Source of the DNA: Candidatus Onthoplasma sp.
GTDB taxonomy: Bacteria > Bacillota > Clostridia > Christensenellales > UBA1242
NCBI GenBank assembly: GCA_965646995.1
Contig: CBFGBH010000003.1
Span: forward strand, 3,533 to 67,532
Direction of reading: 5' to 3'
DNA length: 64,000 bases
Shown one piece after another: positions 33,650-47,541 of this stretch. The notes under the pieces were generated by a model. It ran no database searches. It worked only from the letters and a program-made list of their open reading frames with translations, and was not told the origin of the DNA. A program made the position numbers and the translations under genes. Position 1 is the stretch's first letter. Every line of letters begins with the position of its first letter.

Positions 33650-33682
33650 TATAAAAAAAGTACAGAGTAATCTATACTTTCT
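33650..33682 (-). terminator. Candidate intrinsic terminator ending the SipW operon
   Basis: Minus strand: AAAGTA, 12-nt loop, TACTTT, then TTTTT. It overlaps the stop of the 231-aa gene. Confidence 0.4.
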
Positions 33683-34367
33683 CAAAATATGCATGAACTT
33701 CCATTCTGAAATTATTTATATTCAATGTGTTCTGATATTCATAATCAATATATACGCCGAGTATAACATCTATTCTCTGCCCGCCTGAAATACATTCTTT
33801 TGAATACAAATAACCATCATGACCGTCATAAAAGAGTGACTTATTCGGTTCGTGATAAACCAGATTTTTTATCTTTTCTTCACCTTGGAATACATTTACT
33901 ACAAATCTAATATTATAATCTCCCGAAGTCTGAATATCTAAGTCTACATCAAAATCAAAGCGTACATTGCCACGAATATCCGTTGGTGTTCTAAACCTTT
34001 TGACCTGCATGCCATCTACGAAAAAGCTAGCACCAACATCGCCATGTGTATATAAAAATACGTTGTTTTGTCTATAAATACTCGCAGCTACTAGACAGAC
34101 TGTTATGATTGAAATTATTAAGAAAATTGCGAGTATCACTATTAACACTCTATTTCTGACCGACCTACTTCGATAGTTTTTGATATTCTGTTCGTTAATT
34201 GAGGTTAAATCTTCTAATGCTTTGGTACTGGTCTTTATTCTACTCTTAGGAGAATCGTCGATTTTATTTTCTGAATTAACGTCTGAAAGATTTGACTTGC
34301 TACCATATCTATTCAGCAAATCTTTGAATTGTTCGTTATAGAAATTTTTTGAATTTCTATCCGCCAT
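33672..34367 (-). CDS. Single-pass membrane protein (231 aa), last gene of the SipW operon
   Basis: Start set at ATG 34367 (MADRNSK..., AGGAGAGAAA-ATG). About 85 aa of polar N-terminus, then TM RVLIVILAIFLIISIITVCLVAASIY, then a ~125-aa beta-rich C-terminal domain. Confidence 0.65.
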   Translation of the reverse strand: MADRNSKNFYNEQFKDLLNRYGSKSNLSDVNSENKIDDSPKSRIKTSTKALEDLTSINEQNIKNYRSRSVRNRVLIVILAIFLIISIITVCLVAASIYRQNNVFLYTHGDVGASFFVDGMQVKRFRTPTDIRGNVRFDFDVDLDIQTSGDYNIRFVVNVFQGEEKIKNLVYHEPNKSLFYDGHDGYLYSKECISGGQRIDVILGVYIDYEYQNTLNINNFRMEVHAYFEKV

Positions 34368-34377
34368 TTTCTCTCCT

Positions 34378-47478: not shown

Positions 47479-47512
47479 ATATACCCCTTTTATGTCTATT
47501 CTTGTCAAAATT

Positions 47513-47541
47513 AGTTTAACACATTGTTGCCTTTTTATCAA
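47513..47541 (-). promoter_or_regulatory. Candidate promoter of the giant-lipoprotein/SipW operon
   Basis: Minus strand: TTGATA (47541-47536), 17 nt, TAAACT (47518-47513), preceded by TGT (extended -10-like). Confidence 0.4.

Follow-up and report, generated by a model that had tools for sequence, protein, structure and literature searches.

Six genes lie in close succession on the minus strand of a 64,000-nucleotide (nt) stretch of contig CBFGBH010000003.1 from Candidatus Onthoplasma sp. (termed the window, with positions counted from its first letter). They are numbered g1 to g6 in their reading direction, the whole block spanning 33672-47478, and encode a giant lipoprotein, a signal peptidase of the endoplasmic reticulum (ER)/archaeal type, three proteins with predicted cleavable signals and a membrane protein. 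The cluster is interpreted here as a candidate surface-filament or surface-matrix module related in type to the SipW/TasA systems. Its features are as follows, protein lengths being given in amino acids (aa):

38704-47478, minus strand: g1, 2924 aa, ATG start, giant lipoprotein
38064-38696, minus strand: g2, 210 aa, ER/archaeal-type (SipW-like) signal peptidase I
35648-38062, minus strand: g3, 804 aa, GTG start, secreted protein, predicted cut VYS/AFS
34992-35642, minus strand: g4, 216 aa, subunit of a new family, predicted cut TYS/YFTS
34378-34992, minus strand: g5, 204 aa, paralogue of g4, predicted cut SSA/WFTS
33672-34367, minus strand: g6, 231 aa, single-pass membrane protein with the N terminus inside, no cleavage motif
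47513-47541, minus strand: candidate promoter, TTGATA, 17-nt spacer and TG-extended TAAACT, consensus-level evidence only
about 33652-33683, minus strand: possible weak terminator, an AT-rich hairpin with a U-run overlapping the g6 stop codon, ahead of sufC
31951-33568, minus strand: sufC and sufBD, downstream of g6

The listing of open reading frames (ORFs) and a direct reading of the junctions, on which the coordinates of g1 also rest, confirm the tight packing described in the sequence-only reading, with gaps from g1 to g6 of 7, 1, 5, -1 (an ATAATG overlap) and 10 nt. A plausible purine-rich Shine-Dalgarno sequence is present at each junction, and the GTG start of g3 is consistent with the N termini of 17 orthologues. 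Because the junctions are tight or overlapping, the six genes are probably co-transcribed. The two signals proposed to bound them are less well supported. The promoter site at 47541-47513 matches the sigma-70 consensus at 9 of 12 positions, but such matches are not enriched in the region (91 found compared with 80 ± 9 in shuffles). No terminator is called after g6 by a terminator scan at 33650-33682, whereas folding shows a 13-bp AT-rich hairpin followed by a U-run (-13.8 kcal/mol, z = -2.2), which the scan misses because it contains fewer than three GC pairs. sufC begins 103 nt after g6 on the same strand, so that read-through is possible, and this adjacency is kept in almost all relatives.

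The g2 protein passes the TIGR02228 model of archaeal/ER-type signal peptidase I with 53.6 bits (cut-off 51.85), and the consensus of its orthologues scores 58.8 bits on the same model. Among solved structures, sequence comparison relates g2 only to human SEC11A and SEC11C (1.5e-7). The catalytic boxes TGSMTP, VHRL and HGD, which align with SGSMEP, VHRV and KGDN of SEC11A, are of the Ser/His and not the Ser/Lys kind. Residues Ser-52, His-89 and Asp-108 are identical in the window protein and its orthologue in locus L001, the Ser box is retained in 16 of 16 aligned sequences, and hydrophobic segments are located at residues 13-43 near the N terminus and 175-193 near the C terminus. Because of the TIGR02228 score, the SEC11 match and the Ser/His boxes, g2 is not a peptidase of the LepB type, and its original assignment to the ER/archaeal type is upheld. 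On NF046067, the equivalog model for SipW proper from Bacillus (cut-off 190 bits), g2 reaches only 37.5 bits; judged from its sequence it is SipW-like and not a SipW orthologue. It is a candidate for the dedicated peptidase of the cluster, which would cleave g3, g4 and g5.

The translations of g3-g5 begin with a basic n-region and an h-region, followed by T/S-x-[AS] ahead of x-F-[TS], in agreement with the aromatic-F-(T/S) type of motif first noticed there. The n-regions are Lys-rich and lack an RR motif, as in Sec-type signals. The predicted cleavage regions are VYS/AFSVG in g3, TYS/YFTST in g4 and SSA/WFTSG in g5. Alignment of the cleavage regions places G-T-W-A/A-F-N-D of TasA, whose site is experimentally known and whose sequence was checked against PDB 8AUR, over V-T-Y-S/Y-F-T-S in g4, V-T-N-A/W-F-T-S in g5 orthologues and Q-V-Y-S/A-F-S-V in g3. 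The g4 and g5 motifs match TasA GGTWA/AFND position by position. Orthologues of g4 and g5 keep the small residues at -3 and -1, which g6 lacks, and the g5 motif [VI]T-x-[AS]WF[TS] is kept in 21 sequences. The h-region of g3 orthologues closes with a conserved G-x-T-[YF]-[AS]; of the cleavage region they share only positions -3 to -1 (T-[YF]-A), and later residues vary. The class of these signals, described earlier as SipW-type, is recovered at the level of the g4 family but not for the proteins of the window. TIGR04088, the SipW-dependent signal model (34 positions, cut-off 19 bits), is matched by 26 of the 111 g4-family members tested (best 6.2e-7), and the consensus of a distant g4 subgroup scores 24.5 bits, whereas g3, g4 and g5 of the window, searched also as their first 60 residues, give no match even at E <= 10.

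No match is found for g3-g6 in Pfam, NCBIfam or PDB sequences, and PDB sequence searches with single g1, g3, g4 or g5 sequences and with profiles of g3, g4 (111 sequences), g5 and g6 return nothing meaningful. A word-indexed search finds just two relatives of g4. With an exhaustive HMMER search using a three-sequence g4 profile, the number rises to 173 cluster representatives, of which 116 reach E <= 1e-10. In sequence terms the g4 family is new, being covered by neither a Pfam nor an NCBIfam model. Nearly all of its members are 200-250 aa long, opening with MK-x3-K, an h-region and N[VI]TY[SA]YF[TS]A and ending with ITFEAVQ-x2-N-x-AY. The only invariant residues across the 111 aligned sequences are Phe-32, at position +2 after the predicted cut, and Gln-195, within the FEAVQ motif that compares with FEATQ in TasA. 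An AlphaFold2 model of g4 computed from the 111-sequence alignment has a predicted local distance difference test (pLDDT) value of 94.4 and comprises a signal helix at residues 6-33, a lower-confidence segment without strand structure at 34-45, a β-sandwich with about 11 strands and, at the C terminus, a short helix. In this model the N-terminal extension at about residues 31-45, which is conserved, appears flexible and forms no strand, and a strand of the FEAVQ type is placed toward the C terminus. A first model from a 3-sequence alignment had a pLDDT of 76 and gave only generic β-sandwiches in Foldseek.

The g5 protein is related to g4 along its length. Profile-profile comparison of the orthologue alignments with hhalign gives a probability of 98.6% (E 1.3e-15) at full length and 95% (E 3e-8) for the mature domains with the signals removed, and by this measure g4 and g5 are paralogues. 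For g6 the same comparison gives 82.8% against g4 at full length and 75% (E 2.5e-5) for the ectodomain only, with corresponding values of 86.9% and 55% against g5, and g6 is probably a third paralogue. Its organization differs in having a long, variable, Lys/Ser-rich cytoplasmic N terminus and one transmembrane segment at residues 69-100, after which the sequence is variable and lacks the T-aromatic-A/x-F motif. Because the transmembrane helix carries no cleavage motif, g6 is expected to remain in the membrane, and the earlier proposal that it acts as a membrane anchor gains strength from its probable paralogy with g4 and g5. g5 is a candidate second or minor subunit and g6 a candidate membrane anchor. 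In a subclade of Hadza and UBA metagenome-assembled genomes (MAGs) the g5 orthologue is enlarged from about 200 to 419-612 aa with the N-terminal NITGAWFTD kept, suggesting that the second subunit has acquired additional domains. The enlarged orthologues, by fetched locus, are:

L015, 10732-11988
L016, 824-2659
L017, 10685-12454
L022, 10597-11880

The large secreted protein g3 has no match in Pfam, NCBIfam or PDB, and no VWA domain is detected in it by Pfam. It resembles g4 in the signal region only (hhalign), and no relation of its mature part to TasA is found by profile-profile comparison. The possibility that g3 is a multidomain relative of g4-g6 was ruled out, with an hhalign probability of at most 10% for the mature part. 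Because this part is unrelated to g4-g6, g3 is not an outsized member of the TasA family, contrary to what the earlier reading implied. Scans of genome contigs and metagenome contigs with the g3 alignment found nothing. By analogy with other systems g3 is a candidate tip or accessory component.

The signal peptide of g1 ends in the lipobox FAFG-C25, which marks the protein as a bacterial lipoprotein, and is directly followed by a Big_2 domain at residues 30-100 that passes Pfam (25.3 bits, cut-off 22.8). All 20 homologues compared, with identities as low as 24%, carry the lipobox at residues 21-25, and conservation of g1 is even along the whole length. Of the composition first proposed for g1, the lipoprotein signal and Big_2 are retained, and the other two domains are unconfirmed, GLUG scoring below its Pfam threshold (16.5 compared with 20.5 bits) and FN3 not being found by Pfam. 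PDB contains no relatives of g1 by sequence. Internal repeats and g4-like domains in g1 were both ruled out, as comparisons find neither, and no sequence similarity is found between g1 and g3-g6. Wherever a fetched locus covers this side, g1 adjoins the signal peptidase gene, also in the distant L028. In L029 (9001-19610) a g1 orthologue of 2972 aa and 26% identity is directly followed by sufC and sufBD, and g2-g6 are absent from the site. With g1 present in this relative without g2-g6, the link of g1 to the other genes is therefore strong but not obligatory. The L029 relative may have lost its subunit genes or carry them elsewhere; another, short contig (L026) of its metagenome, 3300029305, bears a distant g4-family gene.

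A second giant ORF is located in the window at 6663-27122 (minus strand); its 6819-aa product has a lipoprotein signal (MKKSILSILMIVFLSITCGVFSAC), and Pfam gives no match to the N-terminal 3333 aa. Homologues of 6971-7023 aa are found 2-3 kb beyond sufBD in most relatives. Together with this ORF the g1-g6 cluster accounts for about 34 kb of a genome that is probably smaller than 1 Mb.

A pattern scan over GTDB species representatives, seeded by a narrow 8-sequence alignment, leads to 17 species-level MAGs, all of them uncultured gut Clostridia and including Candidatus Onthoplasma (Christensenellales). The order g1-g2-g3-g4-g5-g6-sufC-sufBD is found in every fetched locus long enough, down to 33% identity in g4, and the conservation on which the operon reading was staked is thus observed among these relatives. 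A g1 homologue of 24% identity lies in a different neighborhood and is followed by a signal peptidase and by proteins of 806, 203 and 190 aa. Members of the distant g4 subgroup open with MRKYAIPK...GYTYAYFSA, and two of their loci (L006 2932-4995 and L024 2-3360) show an arrangement similar to that of the cluster, with a large protein, a g4-like gene and a protein of about 200-225 aa in series. The fourth protein of this series in L006 matches g6 at 3.4e-9, and the neighborhood in L024 consists of TP_methylase, Peptidase_M1 and DnaB_2 genes, not sufCB.

In the wider surroundings of the cluster, two class-II aminoacyl-tRNA synthetases of the Asp/Asn/Lys type (tRNA-synt_2 plus OB fold) stand in tandem downstream of sufBD at 28601-29986 and 30021-31382 (minus strand), a pair also present in L029. 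Upstream of the cluster, at a distance of about 2.7 kb, a plus-strand gene (50194-51276) encodes a 360-aa protein that joins a family 2 glycosyltransferase domain to TPR repeats and could glycosylate surface proteins.

One of the MAGs, KY236-132 (locus L020), is placed in the family UBA1242. Genomes of UBA1242 and Candidatus Onthoplasma are about 0.7-0.9 Mb in size, below 1 Mb, and lack several glycolytic enzymes, ATP synthase and standard transporters (PMC12306168). The family is proposed to depend on a partner organism and has unexpectedly retained sporulation genes (PMC12306168).

A dedicated signal peptidase combined with two paralogous subunits, a large secreted protein and a membrane anchor has been described in the bsa operon (PMC11580942), the Tafi loci (PMC12337348) and the AbpX loci (10.64898/2026.01.04.697558). 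As a class, such systems with an ER-type peptidase of their own are already known. The initial impression that the cluster is not a described system is therefore true of the g4 protein family and not of the architecture. In the sipW-bsaA-bsaB-bsaC operon of Clostridium perfringens the BsaA polymer is membrane-anchored, and the fourth gene encodes BsaC, a 70-kDa secreted protein (PMC11580942). The present cluster shares with it the occurrence in Clostridia, the SipW-type peptidase, two paralogous small secreted subunits and a large (about 70-90 kDa) secreted protein (PMC11580942). The bsa polymer is attached to the cytoplasmic membrane and not to peptidoglycan (PMC11580942), and a comparable membrane tethering is suggested here by g6. 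Differences occur in the subunits, which past the signal region are unrecognized by the BsaA (TIGR04090) or TasA models, and in g3, which lacks VWA. Further differences from bsa are the separate transmembrane paralogue g6, the giant lipoprotein g1, the absence of an adjacent sortase gene and the placement of the large-protein gene ahead of the subunit genes.

Compared with B. subtilis tapA-sipW-tasA and B. cereus sipW-tasA-capP-calY, the gene of an ER-type peptidase likewise adjoins those of its presumed substrates (PMC9674648, PMC10151520, PMC13082335). A cleavage region of the form T-aromatic-[AS]/x-F-polar, a C-terminal FEA[VT]Q strand motif and more than one subunit paralogue are also shared. 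In contrast with the Bacillus systems, the mature domain has no significant Peptidase_M73 homology, g2 stays far below the SipW cut-off (37.5 and 190 bits, respectively), and no TapA- or CapP-like gene is present, its place being taken by the transmembrane paralogue, the 804-aa protein and the giant lipoprotein. Tafi loci encode the peptidase TafD, the pilins TafA/E, the tip protein TafC and the anchor TafF, which consists of one transmembrane helix and a jelly-roll (PMC12337348, PMC11821415). Compared with the haloarchaeal Tafi loci and the archaeal/bacterial AbpX loci, the cluster is bacterial, has Sec-type signals without a twin-arginine motif, carries no regulator gene, shows no detectable sequence relation to them and includes an additional giant lipoprotein. 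DUF5305, the domain of the peptidase partner TafG, has no Pfam match among the cluster proteins, and the cluster does not qualify as a Tafi locus. The sole structural hint toward AbpX is the Foldseek match to AbpA discussed below.

The favored interpretation, which we consider about as likely as not, is that the cluster encodes a module for a surface filament or surface matrix that belongs to the SipW/TasA type and has been inherited vertically. In such a module, modeled on TasA (PMC9674648), bsa (PMC11580942) and Tafi (PMC12337348), g3, g4 and g5 would be exported via Sec and cut by g2 after T/S-x-[AS], exposing the conserved x-F-[TS] N terminus. The β-sandwich paralogues g4 and g5 would then polymerize outside the cell, their flexible N-terminal extension serving as the donor strand by analogy with TasA, BsaA, AbpA and TafE. 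The polymer would be tethered to the cytoplasmic membrane by g6, which would keep its transmembrane helix, with g3 as a tip or accessory component and g1 co-expressed as a long surface adhesin. The ensemble would most plausibly form an attachment apparatus in reduced-genome gut Clostridia.

Several observations weigh against this interpretation. The signals of the window's own g3-g5 do not reach the 19-bit cut-off of TIGR04088, and one relative has g1 without g2-g6 at the site. Pfam gives no Peptidase_M73 (PF12389) match for g3-g5; 4 of the 111 g4-family members match it weakly, the family consensus does so over model positions 17-47 in the signal region only, and the few Peptidase_M73 and TIGR04090 matches are limited to that region wherever the matched stretch is shown. 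In hhalign the 111-sequence g4 alignment and a 111-sequence TasA alignment give a probability of 2.4% that covers the signal and first strand only, and against a single TasA sequence only the C-terminal FEA[VT]Q strand is aligned (E 0.002, probability 14%). Because these comparisons reach only the signal and first strand or the last strand, membership of the g4 family in the TasA family was rejected, and the placement of the mature domains in TasA/camelysin (Peptidase_M73) is supported neither by hidden Markov models nor by profile-profile comparison. The g4 fold speaks neither clearly for nor clearly against the TasA superfamily: Foldseek against PDB with the pLDDT-94 g4 model gives nothing at E < 1e-3. 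The top matches are CBM3b modules (4.6e-3) among generic β-sandwich binding modules including cohesin. AbpA (7UEG), a TasA-like archaeal bundling pilin, is fifth with E = 0.031, probability 0.47 and a template modeling score of 0.22-0.25, and TasA is not among the best 50 matches.

The lack of a significant fold or sequence match to known fiber subunits, together with generic binding modules (CBM3b, cohesin) as top Foldseek matches, could also be expected of a non-filamentous surface complex. In this arrangement processed g3-g5 and anchored g6 would decorate, anchor or chaperone g1, or form a coat, without donor-strand polymerization, and the tight coupling and co-conservation of g1 with g2 would fit it. 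We judge it possible but distinctly less probable than the filament or matrix module: the positions of the invariant residues, exactly at the predicted mature N terminus and within the final strand, are those seen in TasA, and three paralogues with one of them membrane-tethered repeat the pattern of pilus loci (PMC12337348). Moreover, g1 can occur without g2-g6 and has no sequence relation to g3-g6. It is also conceivable that the hydrophobic segments of g3-g5 are uncleaved type-II anchors and that g2 is a housekeeping peptidase located here by chance. AlphaFold2 places residues 6-33 of g4 in one helix running through the motif, the window proteins are below the TIGR04088 threshold, and reduced genomes may keep a single signal peptidase (context in PMC12306168). 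Against this, the peptidase gene adjoins these genes even in a different neighborhood, the small residues at -3 and -1 are kept in g4 and g5 orthologues and missing from g6, and the 26 of 111 family members matching the SipW-dependent signal model argue for cleavage, so that uncleaved anchors appear improbable. Least likely by some way is a component of the spore coat or a spore appendage in place of a structure of the vegetative cell. The name under which TasA was originally described, spore-coat-associated protein N, occurs in the source annotations, spoIIID is near the locus in relatives, and UBA1242 retains sporulation genes (PMC12306168). However, spoIIID is several genes away on the opposite strand, no sporulation promoter or regulator is identified in the cluster, and the membrane-anchored paralogue and the lipoprotein suggest a location at the cell's cytoplasmic membrane.

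Read as a filament or matrix module, the cluster contributes a subunit family unseen by current models and without a close structural neighbor, and a bacterial transmembrane-anchored subunit paralogue of a kind so far proposed mainly for the archaeal Tafi pili. Also new is a giant lipoprotein whose coupling to the module is conserved, in a lineage of reduced genomes that probably depends on a partner. SipW-type peptidase modules would on this evidence extend well past recognizable TasA homologues. The 13.9-kb cluster and the nearby 20.5-kb lipoprotein gene make up roughly 4% of such a genome, and this share, together with the same order in loci from 17 MAGs, argues for a core function. A bolder and rather doubtful extension is that the cluster and the 6819-aa lipoprotein form the attachment organelle of a partner-dependent, Patescibacteria-like UBA1242, in which structurally new donor-strand pilins, a tether made from a transmembrane paralogue and giant adhesins would hold, and perhaps connect to, the host cell. 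For a family proposed to live off a partner (PMC12306168), the cluster offers a concrete candidate for the attachment machinery.

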